26,789 bases of DNA from a virus (Duplodnaviria; Heunggongvirae; Uroviricota; Caudoviricetes), in the IMG/VR virus record IMGVR_UViG_2568526722_000004, positions 1 through 26,789 of that record. One strand, 5' to 3'. Positions 589-25,421 of the stretch are shown here, piece by piece. The first letter of the stretch is position 1, and each line of letters opens with the position of its first letter. The translations under genes were made by a program, and so were the position numbers. The notes beneath the pieces are model-generated. The model saw only the letters and a list, made by a program, of their open reading frames with translations, made no database searches and was not told the DNA's origin.

Positions 589-595
589 GGTCACC

Positions 596-1393: not shown

Positions 1394-1412
1394 ACTTCGT
1401 TTCTCCTCTTAA

Positions 1413-1775: not shown

Positions 1776-1784
1776 GACCGACCT

Positions 1785-2683: not shown

Positions 2684-2714
2684 CGTTCTGTGGTTAAAAA
2701 TTGAAAGTGTTCTG

Positions 2715-2915
2715 CTAATCTTTCGGATAGATATCCGGTCTTAAGTCAGATTTCGTAATTGCACCTGACGTGCATTGCTCAAGTTTTTTAGCCAGCACAA
2801 AACTGGCTTTTTTATAGCCATTGAAAACCAGCCGTAAGTAGCCAGGTGTTGAGCCAACTTTTCCGGCCAACTCGCCCTGCTGTTCTTTGGTTAAAGAGTC
2901 CCAATACGCTTTCAT
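2715..2915 (-). CDS. Cro/YdaS-like HTH transcriptional regulator
   Basis: 66-aa protein from the internal ATG at 2915 with GGAGGT RBS (the longer 167-aa track ORF has a non-protein-like N-terminal extension); HTH segment ...ELAGKVGSTPGYLRLVFNGYKKASFVLAKKLEQCTSGAITKSDLRPD; divergent from the CI-like gene. Confidence 0.6.
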   Translation of the reverse strand: MKAYWDSLTKEQQGELAGKVGSTPGYLRLVFNGYKKASFVLAKKLEQCTSGAITKSDLRPDIYPKD

Positions 2916-2918
2916 ACA

Positions 2919-2990
2919 ATATGTACCTCCGGTATACATATTACATGATTGAAATGAACCTTCAAGATACTTGTACCTTAACGGTACAAG
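2919..2990. promoter_or_regulatory. Divergent operator/promoter region between Cro-like and CI-like genes
   Basis: Two palindromes with TGTACC half-sites: AATATGTACCTCCGGTATACATATT (2919-2942) and CTTGTACCTTAACGGTACAAG (2970-2990); the same half-site recurs at the promoter after the CI-like gene. Confidence 0.5.
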
Positions 2991-3005
2991 GGTTTTAATT
3001 TCGTT

Positions 3006-3680
3006 ATGAAAACAATCCATGACATCCGGCGGTCTAACGCCAGAAAACTGAGAGATGGTGTTGGCGGGAATTCTTCCTTTGCCACTATGATTGATCGCGA
3101 GCCAACCCAGACCAGCAGGTTTATGGGAGATGGTGCTACTAAAAATATCGGTGACAGCATGGCACGACACATCGAAAAATGTTTCGACCTGCCTGTCGGA
3201 TGGCTCGATCAAGAACACCAGACAACGAACATCACAAAAAAACCTGATGTTTCAATCACTAATAAACAAATCACATTAGTCCCTGTCATATCATGGGTAC
3301 AGGCCGGAGCATGGAAAGAAGTTGGATATTCTGAGGTTGATTTGAGCACAGCAGAAACGTATCCCTGCCCTGTACCCTGTGGGGAAATGACTTATATCTT
3401 GCGGGTGATAGGTGATTCAATGATTGATGAGTACCGCCCGGGAGACATGATTTTTGTCGATCCTGAAGTACCTGCCTGCCACGGTGACGACGTTATTGCA
3501 TTGATGCACGATACAGGCGAAACCACCTTCAAAAGGTTGATAGAAGATGGGACACAGCGTTATCTCAAAGCGTTAAACCCAAACTGGCCTGAGCCTTACA
3601 TTAAGATCAACGGTAATTGCTCTATAATTGGTACAGTGATTTTCTCAGGAAAACCAAGAAGATACAAAATCAAAGCCTAA
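3006..3680 (+). CDS. CI-like phage repressor with LexA/S24 peptidase C-terminal domain
   Basis: 224-aa ORF; C-terminal ...YILRVIGDSMIDEYRPGDMIFVDPEV... has the GDSM serine motif of the S24 (LexA/CI) autopeptidase family; divergent from the Cro-like gene; followed by a terminator. Confidence 0.75.
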   Translation: MKTIHDIRRSNARKLRDGVGGNSSFATMIDREPTQTSRFMGDGATKNIGDSMARHIEKCFDLPVGWLDQEHQTTNITKKPDVSITNKQITLVPVISWVQAGAWKEVGYSEVDLSTAETYPCPVPCGEMTYILRVIGDSMIDEYRPGDMIFVDPEVPACHGDDVIALMHDTGETTFKRLIEDGTQRYLKALNPNWPEPYIKINGNCSIIGTVIFSGKPRRYKIKA

Positions 3681-3692
3681 TCAATGTTTATG

Positions 3693-3716
3693 AACCTGCT
3701 TCGGCAGGTTTTTTTA
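3693..3716 (+). terminator. Rho-independent terminator after the CI-like gene
   Basis: AACCTGC-TTCG-GCAGGTT hairpin followed by a run of T (3709-3715). Confidence 0.7.
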
Positions 3717-3719
3717 TAC

Positions 3720-3752
3720 TTGACAATGTACCTTTGAGATACATAATGTACC
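3720..3752 (+). promoter_or_regulatory. Sigma70-like promoter (pL-like) with flanking TGTACC operator half-sites
   Basis: TTGACA (3720-3725), 17-bp spacer, CATAAT (3742-3747); ATGTACC at 3726-3732 and 3746-3752 overlap the promoter elements. Confidence 0.5.
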
Positions 3753-3914
3753 CAAGCGAAACAACGAACAGGCAGGACGCCCACGAAGTAGCCGCCTGGA
3801 GCATATGAAGTCCAGGATGATTCGTTAGCAACAAAAAAGCGCCCTACAGGACGCTTAGCTCTTTAACAATCTGGTCCCCATCAACAAGTAACTGATAACT
3901 TGAGGAGATGTGAA

Positions 3915-4121
3915 ATGCACAAAACAGAACCCAAAATCGTCGCGCCTGGCTACACAGATGAGGAAATTTATGAGTGGATGACAAAGAAGCTGGCAGCTAT
4001 AAACCAGCTTCGTGAAGTGCTGTCTTATCGACAGGAAACAATAGACTCCTTAAAAAAACTGGATCAGGAAATCACGGTTTTATCACAGGATGTTACTTTA
4101 GATATTGTGCAGACAAATTAG
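3915..4121 (+). CDS. Hypothetical small protein
   Basis: 68-aa ORF from the ATG at 3915, preceded by GAGGAG; the track ORF uses an upstream TTG at 3900. Confidence 0.35.
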   Translation: MHKTEPKIVAPGYTDEEIYEWMTKKLAAINQLREVLSYRQETIDSLKKLDQEITVLSQDVTLDIVQTN

Positions 4122-4527
4122 GATCCCATTCATTTTCGTCAAAATCATCAAAGTGATGAATTTGTGATCTCCAGTCTCGATAATCTAAAAATTTCTGGGC
4201 GGTTACGCTTATTTTATCAAGTGTGAGTTCATCCTGAATTGAAAGAAGAAGTTCATCAAATTTCATCTCATTAATCTGTTTTGGCATCCAGTGATGCTTC
4301 ATCAGAATAAGGTGAACCAGAGCCTTTTTCCCATTCAACTGATTATAGGGAGTGCCGAATTTCTTCCGGTGCTCATGTAAGACAAGGTCCAAAAGAGTAA
4401 GTAATGTTGCCCTTGATTCAACTTTGCTTATTTCGACTGATGACACTACCCCACTGATTTCAATGCCCCGATACTTTCCAACATTTTCACAGTGGGATTT
4501 GTACAGCGTATAGATATTACCGGACAT
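4093..4527 (-). CDS. Hypothetical protein (AT-rich moron, opposite strand to the surrounding operon)
   Basis: 144-aa ORF with AAGGA RBS; markedly AT-rich compared with its flanks; convergent with the upstream small gene; preceded by two direct repeats. Confidence 0.5.
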   Translation of the reverse strand: MSGNIYTLYKSHCENVGKYRGIEISGVVSSVEISKVESRATLLTLLDLVLHEHRKKFGTPYNQLNGKKALVHLILMKHHWMPKQINEMKFDELLLSIQDELTLDKISVTAQKFLDYRDWRSQIHHFDDFDENEWDPNLSAQYLK

Positions 4528-4542
4528 TTCTTTTCCTTTTGC

Positions 4543-4590
4543 GTTGTTGGGGATAACCAGATTAACCGAATCCTTGTTGTTGGGGAATAA
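4543..4590. repeat. Two direct repeats GTTGTTGGGGA(A)TAAC upstream of the moron gene
   Basis: GTTGTTGGGGATAAC at 4543-4557 and GTTGTTGGGGAATAAC at 4575-4590, 16-48 bp upstream of the start codon at 4527. Confidence 0.5.
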
Positions 4591-4995
4591 CTAGGTCCAC
4601 CTCGCCTGATGTGGCTAAAAGCAGGCACATAACAGCTAAGTATTTTCAACCAGAGAGAATCCTTAGCGTTGTGGTGAATGCGGCTCAGCGCACGCGGGTT
4701 AAGGTTGAGGCTGACAGTCGACCTTCTGTGGATACCCACCCGCCTGGTGTGCAACCTTCGCCAGGCACCGGGAGGCACCCGGCACCACAACTTTATGCTG
4801 TGTGTAGTCTTGGCGGTACCAGCTTGTACCCTTGCTTCCGGCTGGTACCGTCCTTTTTACAAAACAGAGAAGAGCATCACCGGACGACGGGCTCATAACC
4901 CAATCCATCCGGGCGGCAGTCACCGCAGGTGTTCTTCTCTGTTTTGTGGAGAAACTAACCGACCTTGCAGGGTCGATATGATGAGGAGCAGCAAA

Positions 4996-5358
4996 ATGGC
5001 TAGCGAACGCAGTACTGATGTGCAGGCATTTATCGGGGAGCTGGACGGCGGCGTATTTGAAACCAAAATCGGCGCAGTTCTCAGTGAAGTCGCTTCCGGT
5101 GTGATGAACACGAAAACCAAAGGTAAGGTCTCGCTCAACCTGGAAATCGAACCGTTTGATGAGAACCGAGTGAAAATCAAACACAAACTCTCATATGTTC
5201 GCCCGACTAACCGCGGGAAAATTTCCGAAGAAGACACCACCGAAACGCCGATGTATGTCAATCGCGGTGGTCGCCTGACTATTCTGCAGGAAGACCAGGG
5301 ACAGTTACTGACTCTTGCCGGTGAACCTGACGGAAAACTCCGCGCAGCAGGTCGTTAA
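4996..5358 (+). CDS. Hypothetical prophage protein (yfdP-like position)
   Basis: 120-aa ORF from the ATG at 4996 with AGGAG RBS; the longer track ORF 4678..5358 has an implausible GC-rich, non-protein-like N-terminal part. Confidence 0.5.
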   Translation: MASERSTDVQAFIGELDGGVFETKIGAVLSEVASGVMNTKTKGKVSLNLEIEPFDENRVKIKHKLSYVRPTNRGKISEEDTTETPMYVNRGGRLTILQEDQGQLLTLAGEPDGKLRAAGR

Positions 5359-5423
5359 TATCGTTTTTAATTAACTGATTATTTATCTCATCACTGAATA
5401 TCTTTATATAGTGAGGACTTATT

Positions 5424-6248
5424 ATGTCTCAGAACTTAGACGCAACCGCAATTAATCAAATCCATGCCCTTATTTCTGCTCAGGGTGTTAATGAAATTAT
5501 CAGTAAGATTGGTGCCGATGCTGTGGCATTGCCTGAGAATTTCCGCATTCATGATCTGGAAAAATTTAATTTAAATCGCTTCCGTTTCCGTGGTGCGCTT
5601 TCCACTGCCAGCATCGATGACTTTACCCGTTATTCTAAAGATCTTGCAGATGAAGGCACCCGCTGCTTTATCGATGCTGATAATATGCGTGCCGTCAGTG
5701 TGCTTAACCTGGGTACTATTGATGAACCAGGTCACGCAGATAACACCGCCACACTCAAACTGAAAAAGACAGCACCGTTCTCTGCTCTGTTGTCTGTTAA
5801 CGGCGAGCGTAACTCCCAGAAGTCACTAGCAGAATGGATTGAAGACTGGGCCGACTATCTTGTGGGCTTTGATGCTAATGGTGACGCTATTCAGGCAACA
5901 AAAGCGGCTGCGGCTGTCCGTAAAATCACGATTGAAGCAAACCAGACCGCTGATTTTGAAGATAATGACTTCAGCGGCAAACGCTCCCTGATGGAGTCTG
6001 TCGAAGCGAAGACCAAAGACATTATGCCAGTGGCATTTGAATTTAAATGCGTTCCGTTTGAAGGTCTGAAAGAACGCCCGTTTAAATTACGCCTCAGTAT
6101 TATCACTGGCGATCGTCCTGTACTGGTTCTGCGCATTATTCAGCTGGAGGCGGTGCAGGAAGAAATGGCTAACGAATTTCGTGATCTGCTTGTTGAGAAA
6201 TTCAAGGACAGCAAAGTAGAAACCTTTATTGGTACTTTCACCGCCTGA
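5424..6248 (+). CDS. yfdQ: Prophage protein, YfdQ-like (274 aa)
   Basis: 274-aa ORF; size and gene order (274/178/120/101 aa) match the yfdQ-yfdR-yfdS-yfdT block of E. coli CPS-53/KplE1 as I recall it; symbol assigned from memory, not verified. Confidence 0.5.
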
Positions 6249-6375
6249 TTTCATTACTGCAAATGCCCCTGCGGGGGCATTTATGGAAACGTAATTTACT
6301 CAATAATCGCCGGATGGTGAGGGATTCTTTTTACCAGAATTCAGCGCGGTGCAGCGCATATACGTGGAGAACAAA

Positions 6376-6912
6376 ATGTCATTTATTAAAACTTTTTCCG
6401 GGAAGCATTTTTATTATGACAGGATAAATAAAGACGACATCGATATTAACGATATCGCGGTTTCCCTTTCAAATATCTGTCGCTTTGCCGGTCATCTTTC
6501 GCACTTCTACAGCGTCGCCCAACATGCGGTTCTTTGCAGCCAGCTGGTGCCGCAGGAATTTGCTTTTGAAGCGTTAATGCATGATGCAACAGAAGCGTAT
6601 TGCCAGGACATTCCCGCACCACTGAAACGCCTTCTTCCTGACTATAAACAAATGGAAGAAAAAATAGACGCCGTAATCCGTGAGAAATACGGGTTACCCC
6701 CAGTTATGAGTACGCCCGTGAAATATGCCGATCTCATCATGCTGGCAACCGAACGCCGCGATCTCGGACTTGATGATGGCTCTTTCTGGCCTGTATTGGA
6801 AGGTATCCCGGCAACAGAGATGTTCAAAGTGATTCCACTGGCTCCAGGCCATGCCTACGGGATGTTTATGGAACGTTTTAACGAGTTATCGGAGTTACGC
6901 AAATGCGCATGA
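6376..6912 (+). CDS. yfdR: HD-domain protein, YfdR-like 5'-deoxynucleotidase
   Basis: 178-aa protein from the ATG at 6376 with GGAGAA RBS; has H..HD-type metal-binding motifs (CRFAGH, MHDATEAY) typical of HD-domain phosphohydrolases. Confidence 0.55.
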   Translation: MSFIKTFSGKHFYYDRINKDDIDINDIAVSLSNICRFAGHLSHFYSVAQHAVLCSQLVPQEFAFEALMHDATEAYCQDIPAPLKRLLPDYKQMEEKIDAVIREKYGLPPVMSTPVKYADLIMLATERRDLGLDDGSFWPVLEGIPATEMFKVIPLAPGHAYGMFMERFNELSELRKCA

Positions 6913-7265
6913 ATGTTTTCGAAATGGAAGGGTTTCTTCGCGGGAAATGTGTACCGCGAGATCTGAAAGTGAACGAAACAAATGCTGAGTACCTGGTACG
7001 TAAATTCGATGCGCTTGAAGCTAAATGTGCAGCACAGGAAAACAAAGTAATACCAGTGTCAACTGAACTGCCACCAGCAAATGAAAGTGTTTTGTTATTC
7101 GATGCTAACGGAGAAGGCTGGCTAATTGGCTGGCGTTCTCTCTGGTACACCTGGGGACAAAAAGAAACCGGAGAATGGCAGTGGACATTTCAGGTCGGGG
7201 ACCTTGAAAACGTCAATATCACTCACTGGGCAGTAATGCCAAAAGCACCGGAGGCTGGAGCATAA
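6903..7265 (+). CDS. yfdS: Prophage protein, YfdS-like
   Basis: 120-aa ORF overlapping the yfdR-like stop; size and order match CPS-53 yfdS from memory. Confidence 0.45.
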   Translation: MRMNVFEMEGFLRGKCVPRDLKVNETNAEYLVRKFDALEAKCAAQENKVIPVSTELPPANESVLLFDANGEGWLIGWRSLWYTWGQKETGEWQWTFQVGDLENVNITHWAVMPKAPEAGA

Positions 7266-7570
7266 TGACCACTTTTACCGACAAAGAACTGATTAAAGAA
7301 ATTAAAGAGCGTATCAGCAGCCTTGACGTGCGAGACGATATTGAGCGCCGTGCTTATGAAATCGCACTCCTATCTCTGGAAGTAGAACCAGATGAACGCG
7401 AAGCTTATGAATTATTCATGGAAAAGCGTTTCGGTGACTTAGTAGATCGTCGGAGAGCAAAAAACGGCGATAACGAATACATGGCATGGGATATGACTCT
7501 CGGTTGGATCGTCTGGCAGCAACGAGCTGGTATCCATTTTTCAACAATGTCACAGCAAGAGGTGAAATAA
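7265..7570 (+). CDS. yfdT: Prophage protein, YfdT-like
   Basis: 101-aa ORF with stop/start overlap on both sides; size and order match CPS-53 yfdT from memory. Confidence 0.45.
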   Translation: MTTFTDKELIKEIKERISSLDVRDDIERRAYEIALLSLEVEPDEREAYELFMEKRFGDLVDRRRAKNGDNEYMAWDMTLGWIVWQQRAGIHFSTMSQQEVK

Positions 7571-7920
7571 TGGAGCCATACAGCCTCACACTCGATGAGG
7601 CCTGTCATTTTCTCAAGATATCCAGACCGACTGCCATTAACTGGATACGCACAGGGCGTCTTCAGGCAACACGCAAAGATCCCACTAAGAATAAATCTCC
7701 TTACCTCACAACACGACAAGCCTGCATTGCGGCTCTTCAGTCTCCGCTGCATACTGTCCAGGTGAGCGCGGGTGATGGCATAACAGAGGAAAGAAAATGT
7801 CACTCTTCCGCAGAGGTGAAATATGGTACGCCAGTTTCACATTGCCGAACGGTAAAAGATTTAAACAGTCTCTTGGAACAAAGGACAAAAGGCAGGCGAC
7901 AGAACTCCATGACAAGCTAA
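7570..7920 (+). CDS. Excisionase-like HTH protein (Xis/AlpA-type)
   Basis: ATG at 7570 with AGGTGA RBS; N-terminal [31 protein letters not shown] is an excisionase-type HTH; sits directly upstream of the integrase; the frame stays open to 7920, overlapping int by 124 nt, so the 3' end is uncertain. Confidence 0.5.
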
Positions 7921-8960
7921 AGGCTGAAGCATGGCGGGTCAGCAAACTTGGTGAAATACCTGATATAACGTTCGAGGAAGCGTGTGTCAGGTGGCTTGAA
8001 GAGAAAGCACATAAAAAATCACTGGACGATGACAAAAGCCGGATCGGATTCTGGCTTCAACATTTCGCAGGAATGCAACTAAGAGACATTACTGAATCAA
8101 AAATTTATTCAGCAATGCAGAAAATGACGAACCGGCGTCATGAGGAAAACTGGAAACTCAGGGCAGAAGCATGCAGAAAAAAAGGGAAACCTGTTCCAGA
8201 ATACACGCCAAAACCAGCGTCCGTTGCAACGAAGGCTACGCATCTTTCATTTATAAAGGCCCTACTAAGAGCCGCAGAGCGTGAATGGAAAATGCTGGAT
8301 AAGGCACCAATTATTAAAGTGCCCCAACCAAAGAATAAACGGATCCGCTGGCTGGAGCCCCATGAAGCACAAAGGCTGATTGATGAATGTCCGGAGCCAT
8401 TAAAGTCTGTTGTTGAATTTGCACTGGCAACAGGCCTAAGACGCTCGAACATCATCAACCTTGAATGGCAACAAATAGATATGCAGCGCCGGGTGGCATG
8501 GATAAACCCGGAAGAGAGTAAATCAAACCGCGCAATTGGCGTTGCGCTGAATGATACTGCATGTCGCGTATTGAAAAAACAAATCGGGAATCATCACCGT
8601 TGGGTATTTGTGTACAAGGAAAGCTGTACCAAACCAGACGGAACGAAAGCGCCAACAGTCAGGAAGATGCGGTATGACGCAAACACAGCCTGGAAAGCGG
8701 CGCTGAGACGGACTGGTATTGATGATTTCAGATTTCACGACTTGAGACACACCTGGGCAAGTTGGCTGGTTCAAGCCGGAGTCCCGTTGTCAGTGTTACA
8801 GGAAATGGGAGGCTGGGAGTCTATCGAAATGGTTCGTCGATATGCTCACCTTGCACCTAATCACCTTACCGAACACGCACGGCAAATAGACTCGATCCTA
8901 AACCCATCGGTCCCAAATTTGTCCCAGTCAAAAAATAAGGAAGGTACTAATGATGTGTAA
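7797..8960 (+). CDS. Tyrosine recombinase, lambdoid phage integrase
   Basis: 387-aa ORF; N-terminus [14 protein letters not shown]... (arm-binding type); C-terminal catalytic region ...[40 protein letters not shown] with the conserved HxxR and Tyr motif; ends 13 nt before a copy of the thrW 3' end. Confidence 0.85.
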
Positions 8961-8972
8961 CTTATTGATTTA

Positions 8973-8990
8973 AATGGTGCGATAATAGGA
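8973..8990. repeat. att core repeat (copy of the thrW 3' end): attR of element A and attL of element B
   Basis: AATGGTGCGATAATAGGA matches 25344-25362 AATGGTGCCGATAATAGGA (18/19, one C missing), same orientation. Confidence 0.7.
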
Positions 8991-9307: not shown

Positions 9308-10288
9308 TCATGCTAAAGCTCGAGCTACATTTTCTTTGATCGCAATAGCACAAGGAGTTTTGAACTTTTCTTTGCAACAGTGTAATAGCGTATTAATATT
9401 CAAATCAGTTTCAAGAATATTTTTTAGCTCACTCTTTCTTTCCGAGATTAAGGTTGGTTTATCTTTGCATTGTTTGACTATTAAGGCAGTTTCATTAATA
9501 TTCAATTGCTCTATCAATGATTTTATGACAGGCATGACAACTCTATCAGCTAAAAAATGACCATTGATATATTGATAGGCGTTATCTTCTCTCAATCCTT
9601 TATCATATAACTGCTCATAGAATTTATCAGCATCGTATTCATCTTGAATAAGGTTATCAAGTTTTTCTTCAATAACCGCTTTAGATTGCTGCATACTTTC
9701 AAATACAGCATTTTTGATAACAAATTGGTTCGTTAATCGTGGCACAGAAGGAGCAATCGCTTCATGGAAAACTGAGTCATCAAGTCTAACTTGATGCTGT
9801 TTAAGCAATAAAAATTTCTTCAGCACGGGGTAGATCAACCGTGAATACTCTGTAATGTATGCTGTAAAATCGAATTTAATTTCAGTAGCGATCTTTATTT
9901 GAGAAAGACAATACTCAAGGACTTCATGGTGTAACTCGATGCTCTCTTTTGAATATACAAATGTTTGAAAAATAAACTTGTTACTGCAAATTATCTCTGA
10001 GTCTGTACTGTTTTTAGGGCATAAATAATCAAAATCACTATCCATTGCAAATATGGCATATCGATTTGCTCGGCTCATGAATTTTTTTAATACTGGTTTC
10101 CCTTTTGTTCCTTTATTGGTAGGGTTACAAATATCAAAACGTATATCATTATCTTTATCGTTTAATAAGCCTTCCCAGAAAGAAATGTCTTTTAGACCTT
10201 CAACAAAGACAAAGCCATTGTGTCCAGCCATAATACAATATACCTGAAGATATTCTTCGCTAAAATTAATATCCTCAAACTCAGTCAT
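9308..10288 (-). CDS. ariB: AriB-like DUF4435/Toprim protein (PARIS defense system effector)
   Basis: 326-aa ORF overlapping the upstream ATPase gene by 8 nt; N-terminal Toprim-like features (MAGHNGFVFVEGLKD..., acidic AIFAMDSDFDY); low GC; the pairing with an ABC-type ATPase is the PARIS (AriA/AriB) architecture. Confidence 0.6.
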   Translation of the reverse strand: MTEFEDINFSEEYLQVYCIMAGHNGFVFVEGLKDISFWEGLLNDKDNDIRFDICNPTNKGTKGKPVLKKFMSRANRYAIFAMDSDFDYLCPKNSTDSEIICSNKFIFQTFVYSKESIELHHEVLEYCLSQIKIATEIKFDFTAYITEYSRLIYPVLKKFLLLKQHQVRLDDSVFHEAIAPSVPRLTNQFVIKNAVFESMQQSKAVIEEKLDNLIQDEYDADKFYEQLYDKGLREDNAYQYINGHFLADRVVMPVIKSLIEQLNINETALIVKQCKDKPTLISERKSELKNILETDLNINTLLHCCKEKFKTPCAIAIKENVARALA

Positions 10289-11276
10289 GAGAAGATTCCT
10301 TTGAAATATTTTTTATATCTACGAAAGAATCCATCCAGCCTTTCATTAATATTGCAGGACTATGAGTAACAATAATTAACTGACAATTATCGTTAATTGA
10401 TTTGATGGTGCTTATTAATCTTTCTTGCCACGTAAGGTGCAAGGATATTTCTGGCTCATCCATCAACAAGACAGATTCATCCAATGAAGTATTAGCTGTT
10501 TTAATCAGAATATATAACAACTGACGTTCACCTGATGAAAGAAGATTATACCTAATATCTTCACCAGAATCACTCATCTTAATAGAAATGTTACCATTAC
10601 TAAAAGAAACAACTTTGTTACATTCAGCAAATAAATTATTTATAGCTGATTCCAACTTATCCTTTATGAGAATACCTTTAGACTCACTTACTTTGAAAGT
10701 ATTCTTTAACCTTTCTAATTCACCAGCAATTTCCATATCAAGAATTGTGGTGCGCTCACCATCACTTTTTTTGAATTCATAGATGGAATTGGCACTCATA
10801 TTGATAGTTGATATTAACTCAACATTTATTCGCTTAGTGTTTTTAATATTATCACTTACGCTAACAGTTCCCATCCCGAACTCTTTAATTTCAGTGTCTT
10901 CTTTTTTCGATTCAAGCAACTCAATAAGTTCATTTAACTCCTTTATTTCCTTACCCTTTGATTTACCTTTAATACTGTTTTTCTTAAGGTTATTAAGTAG
11001 GTTTAGAAGCTGGACAGAGTCAATTTCGCGAAAATTAACTTTGTGAGTAATTGTGCCTCCATTGGCCAATGTTATTTGAGCCAACGCAGCATTACTTAAA
11101 CTTTCATTTAATTCTTGTTTTAAGAGGGCAAAAACACTTTGAATTATCGTGCTCTTACCTGAGCCATTTTTACCCACTAAAACATTCACATCTTTTAAAC
11201 TCCAATCAATGTCCTTCCGTTTAAAAAGACCTTTGATTGCTATATTTTTGATTATCGTCGCCACTCTCGTATCCAT
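10281..11276 (-). CDS. ariA: AriA-like ABC/AAA_15-21 ATPase (PARIS defense system sensor)
   Basis: 331-aa ORF; Walker A GKNGSGKST, signature-like LSSGERQLL, Walker B LLMDEPE, H-loop IIVTHS; low GC. Confidence 0.65.
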   Translation of the reverse strand: MDTRVATIIKNIAIKGLFKRKDIDWSLKDVNVLVGKNGSGKSTIIQSVFALLKQELNESLSNAALAQITLANGGTITHKVNFREIDSVQLLNLLNNLKKNSIKGKSKGKEIKELNELIELLESKKEDTEIKEFGMGTVSVSDNIKNTKRINVELISTINMSANSIYEFKKSDGERTTILDMEIAGELERLKNTFKVSESKGILIKDKLESAINNLFAECNKVVSFSNGNISIKMSDSGEDIRYNLLSSGERQLLYILIKTANTSLDESVLLMDEPEISLHLTWQERLISTIKSINDNCQLIIVTHSPAILMKGWMDSFVDIKNISKESSHD

Positions 11277-15175: not shown

Positions 15176-15684
15176 GCGCCTATTGTCTCCTTTGCTGCCC
15201 GGCGCTGGCGTTTGCGCTTCTCATTCAGCGCCACCAGCCGCGTTTCTGCGTCCTGTTGTTCCTGTGGTGTCACCTCGCCGCACGGCTGGCCTTTCAGGTC
15301 GTAGCGTACCCCACCAGCCATTAAGGCGCGGTAATAGTGCGGACACTGCGCATAAGATGCCAGCGTCGCACGCAATGCCCCTGGCCCGAATGCCAGCCCC
15401 CTGACGGCGAGATCCTGCATCAGGTCGTCGAATATCCCCACCTTAAGCGGCTTCGGTGCTTCCCGGCTGAATAAGTCAGGCCACAACTCAGTGAGGCGGT
15501 TAACGCGCCTGCGGTTTTTGCGCTGGCGTTTGGTCATATGCCGCCACGGTGTCGCCCCTGTGGGCTTTTGCTGCGCTTTCTGGTTACCGGGCATCACTTT
15601 ATGCGCCGATGTGGTTTTATGATCTTACCCAGCAATAGTGGACACGCGGCTAAGTGAGTAAACTCTCAGTCAGAGGTGACTCAC

Positions 15685-15984
15685 ATGACAAAAACAGTAT
15701 CAACCAGTAAAAAACCCCGTAAACAGCATTCGCCTGAATTTCGCAGTGAAGCCCTGAAGCTTGCTGAACGCATCGGTGTTACTGCCGCAGCCCGTGAACT
15801 CAGCCTGTATGAATCACAACTCTACAACTGGCGCAGTAAACAGCAAAATCAGCAGACGTCTTCTGAACGTGAACTGGAGATGTCTACCGAGATTGCACGT
15901 CTCAAACGCCAGCTGGCAGAACGGGATGAAGAGCTGGCTATCCTCCAAAAGGCCGCGACATACTTCGCGAAGCGCCTGAAATGA
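15685..15984 (+). CDS. insE: IS3 transposase OrfA (InsE)
   Basis: 99-aa product [32 protein letters not shown]... with AGGTGA RBS; matches IS3 InsE from memory. Confidence 0.9.
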
Positions 15985-16847
15985 AGTATGTCTTTATTGA
16001 AAAACATCAGGCTGAGTTCAGCATCAAAGCAATGTGCCGCGTGCTCCGGGTGGCCCGCAGCGGCTGGTATACGTGGTGTCAGCGGCGGACAAGGATAAGC
16101 ACGCGTCAGCAGTTCCGCCAACACTGCGACAGCGTTGTCCTCGCGGCTTTTACCCGGTCAAAACAGCGTTACGGTGCCCCACGCCTGACGGATGAACTGC
16201 GTGCTCAGGGTTACCCCTTTAACGTAAAAACCGTGGCGGCAAGCCTGCGCCGTCAGGGACTGAGGGCAAAGGCCTCCCGGAAGTTCAGCCCGGTCAGCTA
16301 CCGCGCACACGGCCTGCCTGTGTCAGAAAATCTGTTGGAGCAGGATTTTTACGCCAGTGGCCCGAACCAGAAGTGGGCAGGAGACATCACGTACTTACGT
16401 ACAGATGAAGGCTGGCTGTATCTGGCAGTGGTCATTGACCTGTGGTCACGTGCCGTTATTGGCTGGTCAATGTCGCCACGCATGACGGCGCAACTGGCCT
16501 GCGATGCCCTGCAGATGGCGCTGTGGCGGCGTAAGAGGCCCCGGAACGTTATCGTTCACACGGACCGTGGAGGCCAGTACTGTTCAGCAGATTATCAGGC
16601 GCAACTGAAGCGGCATAATCTGCGTGGAAGTATGAGCGCAAAAGGTTGCTGCTACGATAATGCCTGCGTGGAAAGCTTCTTTCATTCGCTGAAAGTGGAA
16701 TGTATCCATGGAGAACACTTTATCAGCCGGGAAATAATGCGGGCAACGGTGTTTAATTATATCGAATGTGATTACAATCGGTGGCGGCGGCACAGTTGGT
16801 GTGGCGGCCTCAGTCCGGAACAATTTGAAAACAAGAACCTCGCTTAG
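15981..16847 (+). CDS. insF: IS3 transposase OrfB (InsF), DDE catalytic domain; expressed as OrfAB by -1 frameshift
   Basis: 288-aa ORF overlapping the orfA stop (ATGA); DDE-type integrase core (…HTDRGGQY…, …[11 protein letters not shown]…). Confidence 0.9.
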
Positions 16848-17344: not shown

Positions 17345-19150
17345 TCATGTTCTGTCGTTAATGCCTGCCGTTGCTGGTAACCATCCATCAGCATCTTTAT
17401 CTAACAGAACATTTGTGATCGTTCGCCCTTTATCTGGACCTTTAGTGCATTTAGCCCGCTTGTACTCCTTTCCGTACTCAGCCATTGCCCCTGGCATATC
17501 TGTACCAAAGCGTGTCAGTGATACCGGTTTTCCCAGACCATGCGCAGACATATAAGCCAAATAAGCATGATACAGATATCGCCTCGGACTAAATGGCACT
17601 ATTTCTGCATTACCTACTATCATTCCCTCACATTTAACCAACGACATCAGATAACCGCAGAAGTCCACCAGCGAATCACCTTCACGCTTTATCAACAGTG
17701 CTTCTTCTGATTTTTGCTGCTCATAAAGTAGTCTTTTCGCTTCGTCCTGGTCGGCAAATCGTGTAAGCAAATGGCGAATCACTACTGCCAGTTCCCCTTC
17801 TATCTTTTTCGCCAGCATCGGATCGCGTTCGTTCTCTGGTACAACCTCAGAGAAATTAAATATTACTCGTCGACGCGAGATCCCCCCACTACGGTCGCTG
17901 AATGACATGGCATAATTGTTTACTGCCAGCACTACCGCAGGAACGCGCGTGGAATAGGGCGCTTTGTGTTTCGGATCGATAGCCACCTTGTCACCGCCTG
18001 TAATGGCCTTAATCCCAGCACCATCACCTGCGTAGCGGGTCATGTCAGGCATGATAATCAGAGAATATCCCACCACTAACGCTCGTTCCCTCGCGTCTTC
18101 CAGCGCCTTCATGCTCGCCGATACTGTATTGGCCTTACCCGCCAGCATGGTACAAATCTCCGCCATCACACTTTTACCGCTTCCGCCCGGCCCCGTTACC
18201 TCAAGGAATAACTGCCAGTCGTACCGGTTCGCCAGTACCATGAATAATGCCGCCAGTACGCGATCCGCTTTACGAGCATTATCCGCCACCGAACGACGCA
18301 ACCACTTCCAGAAATTCGGCGCATGTGTTGCCAGCGTTTCCCCCTCTTCTGGCGGGCTGAACGGTAATTCACTGGCATTTAACAACCAGTCATTTTTGTT
18401 GTGTTCCCGAAAATTTCCTGTCCTGATATCAAAAACACCGTTACTGAACCCAATAAGATTTCTGTCCGCTCCCCCCATAACAGGTAGACTCAATTTCATT
18501 GTCTCTACGGCAAATTTAATGGCGTTTTGCGAATAACTAATTTCGGCATCAATAAAAATCTTCGCCATAGACCGCTGGAGTTCCTTATCAGATACAGGCT
18601 CCCAAACAATTCCGTTGTAATGGTGAACTACATCAGAATCATCATTTATCGCCAGTGCTCCTCCATAATGTTCAAGTAACACTTCCCCTCTCTGGCTGGC
18701 TCCCATCTGATTTAATGCAGGCTTGGGTAGACCACTATTTTTTGTAGCTAATTTCATCACTGAAACTTCCCCGTGCTCAGCCTGTTCGCGGATCCGTTGC
18801 AGGTAGTCGCGCCAGTTCTCCGGTTCCTGGTCGGTGATACCTTTGTATAATTTCGCCTCCTGTACGCCAGCCAGCGCCAGCTTTTCAGCGATAGTATTGA
18901 TCTGGATTGGCTCTATCTCCCCCGCGATATAGACACGCGCAAAACGGCGTTTCTCGTCAATAATGCGGATATTCGCCAGGTCTGCCAGTTGCTTTGGCCC
19001 CAGGTAAACAGGAGGCACGTTATCGCCGTGTTTTCGTCCTTCACTTTCAATCCAGTGTTGAGCATGGGCGTAAGCATCCATCCCGGCAAAAATGATTACC
19101 TCAGTGAATTTATCCTTCGGCTGATATTTTAGACTCGGTGCGTTTTTCAC
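17345..19150 (-). CDS. Replication primase/helicase-like protein (P4 alpha / D5-type SF3 NTPase family)
   Basis: 601-aa ORF; Walker A in ...LEVTGPGGSGKSVMAE...; last gene of a tightly coupled operon; followed by the iteron array. Confidence 0.7.
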   Translation of the reverse strand: MKNAPSLKYQPKDKFTEVIIFAGMDAYAHAQHWIESEGRKHGDNVPPVYLGPKQLADLANIRIIDEKRRFARVYIAGEIEPIQINTIAEKLALAGVQEAKLYKGITDQEPENWRDYLQRIREQAEHGEVSVMKLATKNSGLPKPALNQMGASQRGEVLLEHYGGALAINDDSDVVHHYNGIVWEPVSDKELQRSMAKIFIDAEISYSQNAIKFAVETMKLSLPVMGGADRNLIGFSNGVFDIRTGNFREHNKNDWLLNASELPFSPPEEGETLATHAPNFWKWLRRSVADNARKADRVLAALFMVLANRYDWQLFLEVTGPGGSGKSVMAEICTMLAGKANTVSASMKALEDARERALVVGYSLIIMPDMTRYAGDGAGIKAITGGDKVAIDPKHKAPYSTRVPAVVLAVNNYAMSFSDRSGGISRRRVIFNFSEVVPENERDPMLAKKIEGELAVVIRHLLTRFADQDEAKRLLYEQQKSEEALLIKREGDSLVDFCGYLMSLVKCEGMIVGNAEIVPFSPRRYLYHAYLAYMSAHGLGKPVSLTRFGTDMPGAMAEYGKEYKRAKCTKGPDKGRTITNVLLDKDADGWLPATAGINDRT

Positions 19151-20226: not shown

Positions 20227-20443
20227 GGTGCACCTCCTGCACATCAGCCATGATAATTTTTCCGGCCTTATCCAGTGCCTGATCGGCTTTTAGCTGCACA
20301 AATGCTAAATAATGGGAGATGCATTCTGATTCTCTGGCTGCGTGTTTATGCGCCACACCAGCGATAGCAGAAATCTCAATAAGTGAATCCATCAGCGTTT
20401 TGATAGCGTCTACCGCTGCATCAGGCCATGTTGCATTACACAT
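20219..20443 (-). CDS. Hypothetical protein (replication operon)
   Basis: 74-aa ORF; start overlaps the upstream stop by 8 nt. Confidence 0.4.
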   Translation of the reverse strand: MCNATWPDAAVDAIKTLMDSLIEISAIAGVAHKHAARESECISHYLAFVQLKADQALDKAGKIIMADVQEVHHA

Positions 20444-20639
20444 GTTCCACCTCCTGGCGAATACGGGCGGCGAATACCATCACGCAGCCATCAGGAGATT
20501 GCTGGCGTGCTTCCTGTTCGCTGGTGGCCTCGATGTGAATTACGCGCGGTTGTGCCGTGCTCAGGGCGATAAAACGCCAGATGTATTTATTCAGGTTGTG
20601 CGAGTCCCGCCCTTGCGGGTGTGTGGTATGATTTCTCAT
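20436..20639 (-). CDS. Hypothetical protein, first gene of the replication operon
   Basis: 67-aa product from the ATG at 20639 with GAGGT RBS, just downstream of the operator region; it is the plausible C-terminal segment of the 435-aa track ORF. Confidence 0.4.
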   Translation of the reverse strand: MRNHTTHPQGRDSHNLNKYIWRFIALSTAQPRVIHIEATSEQEARQQSPDGCVMVFAARIRQEVEHV

Positions 20640-20735
20640 AGCTACCTCGATACTCTTGCTATCGTTGGTGGTTAGACGCCCTGCATGTGTGCCACCACTG
20701 CGGGGCGTTGTCGTTTCTGCACCTTGCATCAACAA

Positions 20736-20789
20736 GGTGTTGAACACCAATTTAAGCCCAGGTGTTAAACACGTCAAGTGTTGAACACT
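20736..20789. promoter_or_regulatory. Three 13-bp palindromic operators (GTGTT-N-AACAC) in a divergent promoter region
   Basis: GGTGTTGAACACC (20736-20748, perfect), GGTGTTAAACACG (20761-20773), AGTGTTGAACACT (20777-20789, perfect); between the RHH gene (20839, +) and the replication operon (20639, -). Confidence 0.6.
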
Positions 20790-20838
20790 TATTTTTTTTC
20801 CTGCATACTGCATTTGTTTTTTGTAAGGGGTACACAAC

Positions 20839-21018
20839 ATGGCGACAAAAGCAGTAAACGCAAAATCACAAACAGTTGCGGCAAGGGTTCCGCATGAAGT
20901 TATGAACAATGTTGAGGCGGTAAAAATGCCTGGTGAAAGTACAGGGCAGTTTGTAACAGCAGCATTAAAGCGAGAAGTTGAATACCGCCAGCGCCGCAAG
21001 GCCAAAGAACAGGAGTAA
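20839..21018 (+). CDS. Ribbon-helix-helix (Arc/CopG-like) small DNA-binding protein, candidate repressor
   Basis: 59-aa ORF (below the track's length cutoff) read by hand: MATKAVNAKSQTVAARVPHEVMNNVEAVKMPGESTGQFVTAALKREVEYRQRRKAKEQE; beta-strand/helix/helix pattern; AGGGG RBS-like upstream; only gene on the opposite strand in this block. Confidence 0.5.
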   Translation: MATKAVNAKSQTVAARVPHEVMNNVEAVKMPGESTGQFVTAALKREVEYRQRRKAKEQE

Positions 21019-21329
21019 CCATCACCAGCGCCGTGGTGTGAGGAACTACGGTGCATCGTTTTACAGGGCTGCGCCATGACCAACAAAAAATCAACCAATA
21101 CACCATCACCGGCACGGAAAAGACAGCGCAGAAAGATAGCGTACGAGCATGAGTCAAACAGATTCGCGCCCTGTGCGTTTATCCTTGAGAAATTCCTTAA
21201 AGAGTACAGGCGCACAAAAATGGGGTCGCATACCTGGAAAACATCGCGGCATGGCAATGTTAAAGAGCAGGAATAGCCCACCAGCAAGCCAGCATATTCA
21301 CCATAATGACCCTCAGTTAAACATAGAGT

Positions 21330-21743
21330 CATTGGTGCAAAGCTGACACATTGCCCACCAGCCGCAAATCTGGCATTGTTGGCGATGCGTTCAAGTATGT
21401 AGCTTTCCCACTGGCGGCCCTCTGCGGTCGCCTTTGTTTTATCCAGAACGAAATCAGACATCAGATTGATCAGCACCTGGCGACCTGACAAAATCGCATC
21501 AGTCGCGCCACCAGCAAAATTTTTTGCTTTCCGGACAGTGTGACCAACGACATTTTGCAGCAAAATATTCTGCATTTCTGGCGTGCTGTAGTAACGGTGA
21601 TCAGCGCCTTCACTCTGTGCGACCACAACGCTATAATCTGCCTCGTAGACAGTAAGCAATATGGCGCAGTAGGCTATTCGTTCACAAAGGCGCTCCGGCA
21701 ACGGGGCGCTTTCTCTTTTTGTAACGGTCAGAGCGTTACACAT
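21330..21743 (-). CDS. Hypothetical protein co-transcribed with the antirepressor; 3' end undefined
   Basis: ATG at 21743 overlaps the antirepressor stop by 8 nt; the first ~140 codons look protein-like, but the frame has no stop until 20436 and runs through the + strand RHH gene and operators, so the true end is unknown (21330 is arbitrary). Confidence 0.3.
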
Positions 21744-22613: not shown

Positions 22614-22811
22614 TCAGGTAGCTGTTCCGCGTGATTCCGCAATACGCTGATTAATCCACTCGTCAATTTCACTCTCAACGAAAGCAATAGCTCGCGAGCC
22701 AATTTTAACTGATGCAGGAAATTTACCTTGCCCCATAAGGCGATAAATCCATGCCTTGCTATATCCAGTTCTACGCTGAACTTCTGTTAAACGAATAAGC
22801 GTATTTGACAT
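22614..22811 (-). CDS. alpA: AlpA-family phage transcriptional regulator
   Basis: 65-aa ORF: MSNTLIRLTEVQRRTGYSKAWIYRLMGQGKFPASVKIGSRAIAFVESEIDEWINQR, a typical AlpA HTH; sits downstream of a P4-type integrase. Confidence 0.8.
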   Translation of the reverse strand: MSNTLIRLTEVQRRTGYSKAWIYRLMGQGKFPASVKIGSRAIAFVESEIDEWINQRIAESRGTAT

Positions 22812-22880
22812 ATATTTACCTCATAACGTCTACTCAATTTGACGAGGTAATCATGGCACAGAAATAACGAATATTTTCAT

Positions 22881-23023
22881 ACCCTCAGGCCTAATGGTTA
22901 CCGGAAGGAAATCTACCCTAAGGGTGATGGTAATCTGGAGGAAATCTACCCTAAGGGTGATGGTAAAATTGACGGGGAAGATAAAAAAATACCCTCAGGG
23001 TAACAGTAAATCACCCTCAGGGT
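22881..23023. promoter_or_regulatory. Array of five 11-bp palindromic sites ACCCT-N-AGGGT upstream of alpA, including a 27-bp tandem repeat
   Basis: ACCCTCAGGCC (22881-22891, imperfect), ACCCTAAGGGT (22915-22925), ACCCTAAGGGT (22948-22958), ACCCTCAGGGT (22991-23001), ACCCTCAGGGT (23013-23023); GGAAATCTACCCTAAGGGTGATGGTAA repeated at 22907-22933 and 22940-22966. Confidence 0.6.
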
Positions 23024-23038
23024 ATGCGGTATGGTGCG

Positions 23039-23842
23039 TTAATCCGGCTTTGCGTTCTTTTGGCTGTTGTCTCGGTTAATAGGGCAGGCAGTCCTCTCTA
23101 TGAGCGTTGCAAGTGCATTACTTGCCCCCCACTGCTTAAGCTCCCTGGTTATCGCTTCTTGATTTCCCCTGGTGGCAAAATCATTTTCTGGATCGTAATT
23201 GGCCCACTCTCTGTTTCTAATCTCAATAGCCTTAGCTAATGGGTCTTTATCCCAGTATTTATATAAGTGTATCGGGTGCTCTTGCTCTAACTGCTCTATC
23301 CTTGCCCTTAACTCTGCGTTTTCTTTTTCCAGCATTGCGATTTGGGATAATAAATCATCCTCTGTACGCAACTCTTTCTTTTCAATATCGCGTCCTTGTG
23401 CCTCGTCATTTTCAGAAGAGTTAGCGCCTTCCAGCTTCGTTAACGCGTCAAGGACATCGGGAAAAATTGCGAAAATTTCACCCCTTATAAATCCAATGTT
23501 CTCAAATTCGGGATCTTCCCAATAACCGGACACCAGAAAACCATTTTCATCCCTCTCACCAGGTAAACAACCACGTTTCCGAACCGCATTCAGATTTCTA
23601 TAAAGAACATCATTATCAAATTCATCCCGATACGGGTTACAAAAAGATTCCAACAGCTTAAATTCATTTACTGTGTACAGGCGGATATGTTCTCCGCTTA
23701 TTCTCCTGAGTATCCAAGTTATGACATCTGAAACATCATAATCATCACCAGCGACCTTAAGCACGACCTCAAGAAATTCACGTAAAGAAATAAAATCTTT
23801 TTTGTATTCGTTTAATTCGGCATGAATATCAATCATACGCAC
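23039..23842 (-). CDS. Hypothetical protein with coiled-coil segment
   Basis: 267-aa ORF between the integrase and alpA; coiled-coil-like LLSQIAMLEKENAELRARIEQLEQEH; lower GC than the neighbouring core genes. Confidence 0.5.
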   Translation of the reverse strand: MRMIDIHAELNEYKKDFISLREFLEVVLKVAGDDYDVSDVITWILRRISGEHIRLYTVNEFKLLESFCNPYRDEFDNDVLYRNLNAVRKRGCLPGERDENGFLVSGYWEDPEFENIGFIRGEIFAIFPDVLDALTKLEGANSSENDEAQGRDIEKKELRTEDDLLSQIAMLEKENAELRARIEQLEQEHPIHLYKYWDKDPLAKAIEIRNREWANYDPENDFATRGNQEAITRELKQWGASNALATLIERTACPINRDNSQKNAKPD

Positions 23843-23964: not shown

Positions 23965-25179
23965 TCACCCGCATTTTCCGAACTCACCATGCACCACATT
24001 TCCGCCATGCTCGAGCGAATCCATATAATCAGCGTACCACTGAAGCATTTCCCGCCGCCCATCCAGATATTGCGCATGGTTGTATGTGCCACGAATTGAG
24101 TTTTTATCGACGTGCGCAAGCTGTGTCTCTATCCACGCGGTGTTATAGCCCTGCTCATGCAAAATGGTGCTCATAGTGTGCCGGAAGCCATGACCAGTAA
24201 CCTTTCCGTTATAGCCGATGCGTTTAAATACTTGGTTTATGCTAGCCTCGCTCATTGTTTTCCTTGGATCATTACGGCCGGGAAACATAAGCGGATAATT
24301 GCCAGTTAGTTCTTTAATCTGCCCAATAAGCGAAAGAGCCTGCTCAGACAAAGGCACTACATGAGGGCGACGCATTTTCATCCGTGAAGCAGGTATCTCC
24401 CAGATAGCCTTGTTGAGATCGATTTCATCCCATAATGCACCGCGCAGTTCGCCAGTCCGCAAACCGGTGATAATCAGTAAACGAGCCGCCATAACAACCA
24501 ATGCACTTCCTGAGTAACTGGACAATGCCTTGAAAAAATCAGGTAATTCTTTGGCTGTGAGGAAAGGATAATGATTAGATTCATGACCTTGCATCGCGCT
24601 GGTGAGATCCGGTGCAGGGTTATACTCAGCACGTCCAGTGACAATTGCATAGCGGAAAACTTCCCCACATCGCTGCCTCACTTTTTTGGCTTTTTCGGTA
24701 GCACCGCGCCCCTCGATGCGCCGCAGCACATTCAGCAGTTCAAGTGGTTTGATTTCGGCGATTGGTTTTTTGCCAATGTAAGGGAACACATCTTTGTTGA
24801 AGGCTTCGAGGATGTCTGAAGCATAACCAGCAGACCATTTTTTTAATTTGCTGCTGTGCCACTCAAGGGCAATATCTTTGAAGGTGTTGTTTAACTGCGT
24901 TTCCCGGGCAATCTTTTCCTCTCGTTTCGCTTCCATCGGATCGATACCCCCAGCGATACCCCTTTTAGCTTCTTCACGTTTTGCACGAGCATCAGCCAAG
25001 GTAACTTCAGGATACACACCTAGTGCTAACAGCTTCTCTTTACCAGCTACACGATACTTGAAGCGCCAATATTTTCCTCCACTAGGTTTTACCAAGAGAT
25101 ACAGACCACCACCATCAGCCAGCTTGTAAGCCTTCTCTTTTGGCTTGGCAGTGTCTATTTGACGGGCATTGAGTTTCAC
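23965..25179 (-). CDS. Tyrosine recombinase, P4-type integrase
   Basis: 404-aa ORF next to and co-oriented with thrW; N-terminal MKLNARQIDTAKPKEKAYKLADGGGLYLLVKPSGGKYWRFKYR... (P4-integrase N-terminal domain type) and C-terminal ...GHGFRHTMSTILHEQGYNTAWIETQLAH...Y catalytic region. Confidence 0.9.
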   Translation of the reverse strand: MKLNARQIDTAKPKEKAYKLADGGGLYLLVKPSGGKYWRFKYRVAGKEKLLALGVYPEVTLADARAKREEAKRGIAGGIDPMEAKREEKIARETQLNNTFKDIALEWHSSKLKKWSAGYASDILEAFNKDVFPYIGKKPIAEIKPLELLNVLRRIEGRGATEKAKKVRQRCGEVFRYAIVTGRAEYNPAPDLTSAMQGHESNHYPFLTAKELPDFFKALSSYSGSALVVMAARLLIITGLRTGELRGALWDEIDLNKAIWEIPASRMKMRRPHVVPLSEQALSLIGQIKELTGNYPLMFPGRNDPRKTMSEASINQVFKRIGYNGKVTGHGFRHTMSTILHEQGYNTAWIETQLAHVDKNSIRGTYNHAQYLDGRREMLQWYADYMDSLEHGGNVVHGEFGKCG

Positions 25180-25343: not shown

Positions 25344-25362
25344 AATGGTGCCGATAATAGGA
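25344..25362. repeat. att core at the thrW 3' end (attL of element A)
   Basis: AATGGTGCCGATAATAGGA overlaps the last 17 nt of the tRNA gene; imperfect direct repeat at 8973-8990. Confidence 0.7.
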
Positions 25363-25421
25363 GTCGAACCTACGACCTTCGCATTACGAATGCGCTGCTC
25401 TACCAACTGAGCTATATCGGC
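25346..25421 (-). tRNA. thrW: tRNA-Thr (anticodon CGU)
   Basis: Reverse complement is GCCGATATAGCTCAGTTGGTAGAGCAGCGCATTCGTAATGCGAAGGTCGTAGGTTCGACTCCTATTATCGGCACCA: 76 nt, cloverleaf-compatible, anticodon loop TTCGTAA, encoded CCA; sits immediately downstream of proA as thrW does in E. coli. Confidence 0.95.

Follow-up and report, generated by a model that had tools for sequence, protein, structure and literature searches.

Stl, the master repressor of Staphylococcus aureus pathogenicity islands (SaPIs), has a conserved DNA-binding part and a highly variable part that is thought to meet helper-phage proteins, and its alleles are exchanged together with their operators. In Gram-negative phage-inducible chromosomal islands (PICIs), alpA is the master activator, which the helper phage induces and which activates itself (PMC6092414, PMC11773190). 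Overexpression of AlpA is toxic. AlpA expression depends on the helper, and since 2018 no island-encoded regulator and no phage inducer has been known (PMC6092414). In the integrative element ICEclc, a potent activator of the alpA promoter is BisR, a 251-amino-acid (aa) protein with no Pfam domain that is made from a single-gene transcript and is the prototype of a new regulator family (eLife 2020, PMC7423338). Here, we analysed a 26,789-nucleotide stretch of DNA (positions 1 to 26,789 of IMG/VR record IMGVR_UViG_2568526722_000004; hereafter the window) that carries an Escherichia coli island, and in it an array of short repeated sites between alpA and the gene upstream of it, which encodes a 267-aa protein that we call X. 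Helper-phage induction and packaging have been shown experimentally for two relatives of this island, EcCICFT073 and EcCIMP1; EcCIMP1 is a PICI that is induced and mobilised by phage Kapi1, and its gene between int (integrase) and alpA is uncharacterised. From comparative sequence analysis we propose, with a probability of about 0.6, that the array is a set of operators for X and would gate the alpA promoter and thereby induction of the island.

The gap between the X stop codon and the alpA start codon is 227 bp long (22812-23038), as a preliminary description of this DNA had it. It contains four exact copies of ACCCTNAGGGT (Table 1), and no further exact copy is present in the window. With up to one mismatch allowed, chance alone would give 0.39 matches over the entire window, and none of 100 shuffles reached five. 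The preliminary description had counted five ACCCT-N-AGGGT palindromes. Four are exact, and the fifth, at 22881, is a copy with two mismatches (ACCCTCAGGcc). About 10 such matches are expected per window, so this copy alone is not above chance, and the only ground for counting it as real is that all relatives conserve both its sequence and its position. In the window it abuts TATGAAAAT, and its counterparts at two related loci (L019 and L029) form a perfect palindrome of 16 bp, CCATTAGGCCTAATGG. The 27-bp tandem repeat reported earlier is the exactly repeated core (22908-22934 and 22941-22967) of a repeat with a true period of 33 bp, whose two copies (22894-22926 and 22927-22959) are 88% identical. 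Tandem Repeats Finder reports nothing here because there are just two copies.

The 11-bp dyads of the preliminary description are present, but they are only part of the site. When 41 distinct sites from 11 loci were aligned on the dyad, a third pentamer became apparent 6 bp upstream, in direct orientation. This gives the consensus ACCYT-N-ACCCT-N-AGGGT-A, for which 37 of the 41 sites have T at -2 and whose orientation is always that of the alpA-coding strand. The unit of the array is an asymmetric element of ~17 bp and not a simple palindrome. From centre to centre, the sites are 22, 43, 33 and 34 bp apart, or 2, 4, 3 and 3 helical turns of 10.75-11.3 bp each. The earlier view that the gap is more structured than a simple promoter is supported; the gap has the hallmarks of a multi-site protein-binding array that would control alpA and so induction.

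We found the array region in 170 of 5,426 complete E. coli genomes (~3%), where its copy number varies. The 33-bp unit is present once in strains JNU, E1 and APEC E19019, twice in the window and in 52F4, and three times in U90. The 22-bp distal unit occurs in two or three copies (L012 versus L011), and the copies of the array in IMG/VR have 3, 4 or 5 perfect dyads. Because these changes come as whole 33- or 22-bp units, which are multiples of ~11 bp, the sites stay in register. In the relatives, dyad centres lie at -75 and -109 (+33n) from the alpA ATG, followed by steps of +43/44 and +21-23. The centre of the proximal site is at -75 in nearly all window-type relatives, and the spacing of 21-23 bp between the distal sites is conserved in all relatives. 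At L010 (from Citrobacter), L011, L012 and L013, X is 33-61% identical and the distal gap DNA is ~63% identical, with the dyads kept perfectly even where identity of the X homologue drops to 33-42%. As judged from these alignments, conserved dyads in diverged gaps are a clear phylogenetic footprint.

A motif search in homologous islands and in helper phages had been proposed earlier as a check. Among the islands, those of E. coli, Citrobacter, Klebsiella, Sodalis and Xenorhabdus share the motif, its position relative to alpA and the near-whole-turn spacings, and conservation across genera is the opposite of the outcome that was named as speaking against the array. For the phages, we scanned IMG/VR for two dyads 9-13 bp apart and obtained 24 contigs. 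Twenty hold this satellite module, with an X-family gene directly upstream of the array, and 4 are unrelated tandem repeats; no recognisable enterobacterial phage is among the 24. Likewise, tblastn and blastn matched neither an X homologue nor the array region in 50,697 phage records. These searches yielded no positive evidence for a binding factor encoded by the helper phage, which was one of the two binders suggested in the preliminary description.

The other suggested binder was AlpA itself. Islands with a different gene between int and alpA encode AlpA proteins 77-97% identical to that of the window, and none of them has ACCCTNAGGGT. At L007, AlpA is 97% and AntA 96% identical to the window's, yet the motif is absent. 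At L029 and L046, AlpA is only 74% identical, and an X homologue (52% identical in the C-terminal part) is found with the full array. The array does not follow the AlpA allele, and we rejected an AlpA-binding element, whether for autoregulation or for AlpA-type antitermination. L007 also speaks against AntA as an explanation. Integrase arm-type or excisionase sites were rejected because the array is ~2.3 kb from attL and is kept with a different integrase at tRNA-Gly (L003, L011 and L012), and replication-origin iterons because it is kept with a DUF927-type primase (L003) and lies 3.7 kb from the primase gene of the window. Since the array is independent of AlpA, AntA, the integrase, the attachment (att) site and the type of primase, it follows X alone. 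Homology between the window and the islands with a different gene ends ~22 bp before the alpA ATG, which indicates that X and the gap are exchanged as one module. The X gene, which had earlier been named just as a control for footprinting, is the element that co-varies with the array.

By all database comparisons made here, X founds an unannotated protein family. Alignment of homologues divides X into a variable N-terminal region (~1-150), a coiled coil (~160-188) and a conserved C-terminal four-helix domain (~190-257). The C-terminal domain of ~70 residues has the pattern ...PILLxxYRxDDPLxLAIxxRNxxWxxY...Q..I...L...A.AIExVACPIxR, and an AlphaFold2 (AF2) model of this part is all-helical with a pLDDT of 91.6. 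Comparison of X with Pfam, PHROGs, NCBIfam, PADLOC and PDB sequences returned nothing beyond coiled-coil similarity, and no helix-turn-helix (HTH) domain was detected in X. The coil weakly resembles the zippers of Max, USF and GCN4 (E 0.08-0.7), and one homologue is named bZIP transcription factor in RefSeq; in X, the conserved domain is C-terminal to the coil, and the segment before the coil is acidic and variable. A profile of the C-terminal domain matched 75 cluster representatives among 1.84 billion proteins. In the matches, the domain is essentially always C-terminal, in proteins of 200-350 aa with unrelated N-termini, and 56 family representatives that were scanned contain no Pfam domain, bar three single weak coiled-coil matches. 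The searchable literature yielded no description of the X family and none of PICI operators upstream of alpA.

The pairing of X with a repeat array extends to distant members of the family. Wherever the context is visible, the gene order is int-X-alpA-...-primase. Distant members are followed by an intergenic repeat array and then by an AlpA-like gene in Xenorhabdus, Sodalis, Cedecea, Atlantibacter and Klebsiella, at L078 and in many IMG/VR contigs. In two distant subfamilies, an AlpA-like gene follows 15 of the 15 intergenic regions examined, and the same is true of most single loci. Motif and domain co-vary between subfamilies. ACCCT-N-AGGGT goes with an R-[GA]-N-Q signature, even in the distant L078, and L077 has the close variant ACCC-N3-GGGT. 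The P0042 and A10 ('AIEIVACPINRN') subfamilies have ACTAT-N-ATAGT composites (ACTAT-C-ATAGT), and the A11 ('EIEKIACPI') subfamily has CCTATAT repeats together with a terminator stem that covaries around a constant CTATATAG apex.

Alternative genes between int and alpA each come with repeats of their own. For example, L007 has four ATGGC-N4-ACCAT units and L008 has AT-rich dyads. In E. coli ZF8-1 (L009, 3880-3914), two perfect 14-bp palindromes, ACCGCAATTGCGGT, lie 21 bp apart in the position of the array. The gene between int and alpA at this locus is a different 251-aa coiled-coil gene outside the X family. By its layout, L009 is an analogous, putative regulator/operator module of another family.

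We further characterised the region between the array and alpA. A consensus scan found no consensus sigma-70 promoter (-35/-10) on the alpA strand. The candidate promoter is an extended -10 element (Table 1), whose pattern, TGnNANNAT, is conserved in place in all window-type lineages (L019, L020, L021, L023 and L029), and a TNTAAT hexamer is found in the equivalent place in distant subfamilies. Relative to the predicted start, the dyad centres lie at about -43, -77, -110, -153 and -175, with none over the -10 or +1. The weakest site, which is the proximal one, abuts the -35 position of this predicted promoter, whose -35 is poor.

The alpA leader is predicted to form a hairpin in which the Shine-Dalgarno (SD) sequence pairs with an anti-SD arm, and the -10-like element is directly 5' of this arm in most lineages examined. 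The arms differ between lineages with compensatory changes, e.g. CCTCTCGTT/AACGAGAGG versus CCTATCGTT/AACGATAGG. Other module types have leader hairpins of unrelated sequence in the equivalent position. SD/anti-SD leader folds were also seen at L007, L008, L009, L019, L023, L049, L057, L059, L060, L064 and L072. In the fold-back inhibition of the insertion sequences (ISs) IS10 and IS50, the 5' arm carried by read-through transcripts sequesters the ribosome-binding site, and transcription from the promoter of the element itself begins within or beyond this arm. The same layout is predicted for the alpA leader. With a start near 22843, ~7 nt downstream of the -10 element, alpA transcripts would lack the anti-SD arm, and read-through transcripts would carry it. 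This arrangement suggests an IS10-like fold-back inhibition of alpA, in which only transcripts from its own promoter would be translatable.

A second feature of the leader is a short palindrome between the -10-like hexamer and the AlpA-like start, which we observed at L016 and L018, in both ~66 nt before the AlpA-like start codon, and at L049-L076. In distant subfamilies these palindromes vary by locus (GTAACGTTAC, GTTCGAAC, GTAGCTAC and GTCTAGAC). They could be a site of AlpA autoregulation or a part of the leader fold.

The two distal dyads also form a terminator in RNA, which the first reading of this DNA missed. In the minus-strand transcript, the 23013 and 22991 dyads form a hairpin of -23.9 kcal/mol (z = -5.7) that is followed by U7. 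The hairpin lies 13 nt past the X stop codon and also appears in a fold of the whole gap and in a terminator scan. A stable GC-containing hairpin, a U-run and a position downstream of a stop codon are what is expected of a rho-independent terminator. Equivalent hairpins of -18 to -30 kcal/mol are present at L002, L010 and L012, and the capacity of the distal pair to form a hairpin is kept in all relatives. However, the U-run is missing in L002 and L010. These data indicate that the terminator is not universal and that the DNA sites are more conserved than the terminator. At L006 (E. coli 52F4), a 23-bp deletion (about one 22-bp period, with ends in both distal dyads; window 22990-23012) removes one terminator arm. 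Because alpA and the later genes at this locus are replaced by a truncated RepA helicase gene, L006 is a decayed copy of the module.

If the array is the operator set of X, the following mechanism can be proposed. X would oligomerise via its coiled coil, and its C-terminal domains would read the ACYMT pentamers, two direct copies and one inverted, of each site. With spacings of 2, 3 or 4 turns, the sites share roughly one helical face, and X would fill them cooperatively, as far as the weak proximal site. This last site abuts the -35 position of the candidate promoter, in which the -10 is extended and the -35 poor, so that X would gate alpA transcription and island induction; the variable N-terminus of X would sense the helper phage. 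The stop-proximal sites would double, as RNA, as the terminator of int-X and, together with the anti-SD hairpin, would insulate alpA from read-through. Provided that X is the binder, we lean slightly towards X being an activator that senses the helper phage through its variable N-terminus. Three features favour activation: the geometry is class-II-like, the asymmetric sites all point the same way, and no site lies over the -10 or +1. A bolder version is tentative, and we hold it to be doubtful: X would be both the sensor of the helper phage and the master switch in a large class of Gram-negative satellites, its coiled coil and four-helix 'VACPI' domain would be a new DNA-binding domain that reads ACYMT triplets, and a helper protein bound by the hypervariable N-terminal domain would alter oligomerisation or DNA binding and so fire the alpA promoter. 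Allelic variation in X would then set which helpers induce which island.

Several observations count against X as the regulator that reads the array. The 3' end of X adjoins the gap, and the co-variation could partly reflect this physical linkage. The C-terminal domain falls to ~31% identity (L078) with no change in the motif, so the mapping of residues to bases is loose. L017 is a family member without AlpA after it, and the alpA promoter and its transcription start site (TSS) are predictions. Finally, PICIs that lack X (EcCICFT073 and EcCIMP1) are still induced by helpers, so X is not universally required. Linkage and the X-less islands are also what would be expected if X were just a linked accessory gene and the binder were a helper-phage activator, a host protein or an autoactivating AlpA. 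Helper phages induce alpA promoters in X-less PICIs, AlpA autoactivates, the gene between int and alpA in EcCIMP1 is treated as accessory, and linkage could mimic co-variation of X and array. Against this, AlpA is ruled out by the double dissociation between L007 and L029/L046, and neither the paired motif nor a homologue of X is present in any phage of INPHARED or IMG/VR. The X family is also coupled to an array again and again, across genera and motif types; the N-terminal half of the X gene recombines freely, and the C-terminal domain stays with the array. We therefore regard a binder other than X as improbable.

The sign of regulation could also be the reverse. X may be an Stl-like master repressor whose oligomers would coat the 170-bp array and occlude a TATGAA -10 that overlaps the proximal site, until a helper protein bound to the N-terminus released X. 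Because overexpressed AlpA is toxic, a satellite must be kept tightly off; Stl of the SaPIs follows the same logic of a variable sensor domain, and an in-phase multi-site array fits cooperative repression. Moreover, several lineages have a TATGAA, TATGAT or TATAAA that overlaps the proximal site at its 3' end. However, TATGAA is not conserved (it is absent from L021/L022). The element that subfamilies do share is TGnNANNAT/TNTAAT, which lies further downstream, immediately 5' of the anti-SD arm, and a promoter built on it would have its -10 and +1 free of sites. A repressor also does not need asymmetric sites in a single orientation, and we consider repression unlikely, although, of the alternatives to the proposal made here, it is the strongest and a serious one. 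It is hard to credit, by comparison, that the repeats are structural RNA or DNA only, i.e. a terminator and tandem duplications made by slippage with no role for a protein. Against that account, L002 and L010 keep the dyads in the absence of the U-run, the proximal copies stand downstream of the terminator and hold fixed distances from alpA, the third direct pentamer (T at -2 in 37/41) has no role in a hairpin, and the degenerate proximal site beside the promoter is conserved. In its favour are the strong hairpin and U7 of the distal pair (any two identical palindromes can pair), the variation of copy number by unequal crossing-over and the covarying terminator stem of the A11 subfamily.

The island that carries this module lies in E. 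coli DNA, is 16.4 kb long and is bounded by direct repeats, TCCTATTATC, at 8981-8990 and 25353-25362. The second repeat is inside tRNA-Thr (thrW; 25346-25421), next to proA. On the minus strand, the island has the order int, X, alpA, AntA/AntB, Icd-like and DUF4222 genes, D5-type primase, ProQ/FinO and PerC, and AriA/AriB (Table 1). As in described PICIs, int is beside a specific att site with flanking direct repeats, alpA is downstream of int, a primase gene is present, and the size is within ~10-20 kb. The annotation of a near-identical island in strain 94EC (L001) contains no structural genes. The TCCTATTATC att core is identical to the published core of EcCIMP1. These features point to an EcCIMP1-like PICI at thrW. 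The island is not EcCIMP1 itself; it is of the same kind and has the same att site, and EcCIMP1 has a 427-bp gap with unrelated palindromes and lacks X and the array. The AriA/AriB pair is a PARIS anti-phage system carried as satellite cargo.

Table 1. Coordinates and strands of the features discussed, as positions in the 26,789-nucleotide window
Feature	Position	Strand	Description
Integrase gene (int)	23965-25179	-	Adjoins tRNA-Thr
X (gene for the 267-aa protein), candidate cognate regulator	23039-23842	-	Open reading frame (ORF)
Distal site 1	23013-23030	-	Dyad ACCCTGAGGGT (23013-23023), degenerate third pentamer ACCGC; 5' terminator arm
Distal site 2	22991-23007	-	Dyad ACCCTGAGGGT (22991-23001), degenerate third pentamer ACTGT; 3' terminator arm
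Intrinsic terminator of the int/X transcript	22982-23026	-	13-bp stem (one central G.G mismatch), 11-nt loop, U7
Two 33-bp tandem units	22894-22959	-	Each with one ACCAT-C-ACCCT-T-AGGGT; dyads 22915-22925 and 22948-22958
Promoter-proximal degenerate site	22881-22898	-	ACCAT-TA-GGCCT-G-AGGGT
Candidate alpA promoter	22850-22858	-	Extended -10, TG-c-CATGAT; predicted TSS near 22843, inferred from sequence
Predicted leader hairpin	22816-22850	-	alpA SD arm 22816-22824 pairs with anti-SD arm 22842-22850
alpA, candidate regulated gene	22614-22811	-	Pfam Phage_AlpA, 2.4e-19
Primase gene	17345-19150	-	D5_N/Pox_D5
AriA and AriB pair	9308-11276	-	Far end of the island; PADLOC AriA 2.6e-43 (AAA ATPase), AriB 3.6e-22 (DUF4435)

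Other parts of the window bear on the annotation of the island. An IS3-family transposase gene (HTH_21 and rve, with a 102-aa ORF before it) lies at 15676-16847 on the plus strand, between the primase gene and the ProQ/PerC genes. Because the near-identical 94EC island has only ~380 bp there, this is an IS insertion in the window island. A 435-aa ORF at 20436-21743 on the minus strand coincides with short genes on both strands (Icd-like, YlcI/YnfO and small hypothetical genes) in near-identical annotated islands, and it is probably spurious. A second integrative element occupies positions 1-8960 of the window, in tandem at the thrW site. Its tyrosine integrase gene (7797-8960, plus strand) ends ~20 bp from the att repeat and is preceded by prophage-type genes for KilA-N (596-1393), a CII/CP76 regulator (2120-2683) and DUF2303 (5424-6248). 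This element could be a resident prophage and a possible helper.

For one large group of Gram-negative PICIs, the locus supplies a cis/trans pair that is concrete and open to test: a defined array and an unannotated protein family. The X family is directly upstream of alpA in nearly every locus examined and has relatives in several genera beyond E. coli. We suggest that the module is a satellite regulatory unit built on an undescribed family of putative DNA-binding proteins. If this is true, a new family of DNA-binding domains would be defined, and helper specificity would be explained by the variable N-terminus. The module would also offer a handle for engineering PICI-based delivery vehicles. 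If X is not the binder, the array is still a well-delimited target for finding the true factor.

Among described systems, SaPI Stl resembles X in its logic. Like Stl, X is encoded by the satellite near the integrase, is a candidate for control of the first gene of the induction cascade, combines a conserved with a variable part and is exchanged as a module. Stl has an N-terminal HTH, and its gene diverges from the target gene. In X, no HTH can be recognised and the conserved domain comes after the coil, at the C-terminus; its gene runs in the same direction as alpA, from which a terminator separates it. X may also regulate with the opposite sign. Comparison of X with Stl found no similarity in sequence or structure, and with no HTH and co-directional transcription, X does not belong with the SaPI Stl-type master repressors.

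The likeness of X to BisR is one of size, domain content and promoter target. Both are ~250 aa with no Pfam domain, and the alpA promoter is the target of BisR and the proposed target of X. Unlike ICEclc, the contexts of X are satellite-like (int-X-alpA-primase) and lack the ParB-like bisD and the DUF2857 gene bisC; this applies to the distant high-GC members as well, for which an ICEclc-like context was considered and rejected. Like EcCICFT073 and EcCIMP1, the window island is at thrW, with the TCCTATTATC core, int, alpA, AntA, primase and PerC; unlike it, these two islands have neither an X-family gene nor an ACCCT array upstream of alpA. For the operators themselves, there is a parallel in regulators that read arrays of short contiguous direct and inverted repeats, such as Omega of plasmid pSM19035, a ribbon-helix-helix protein whose operators consist of units of 5-7 bp, direct and inverted, arrayed upstream of promoters. 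The C-terminal part of X, unlike Omega, is all-helical in the predicted model. Like the Omega operators, the sites in the window are short units in mixed direct and inverted arrays upstream of a predicted promoter.
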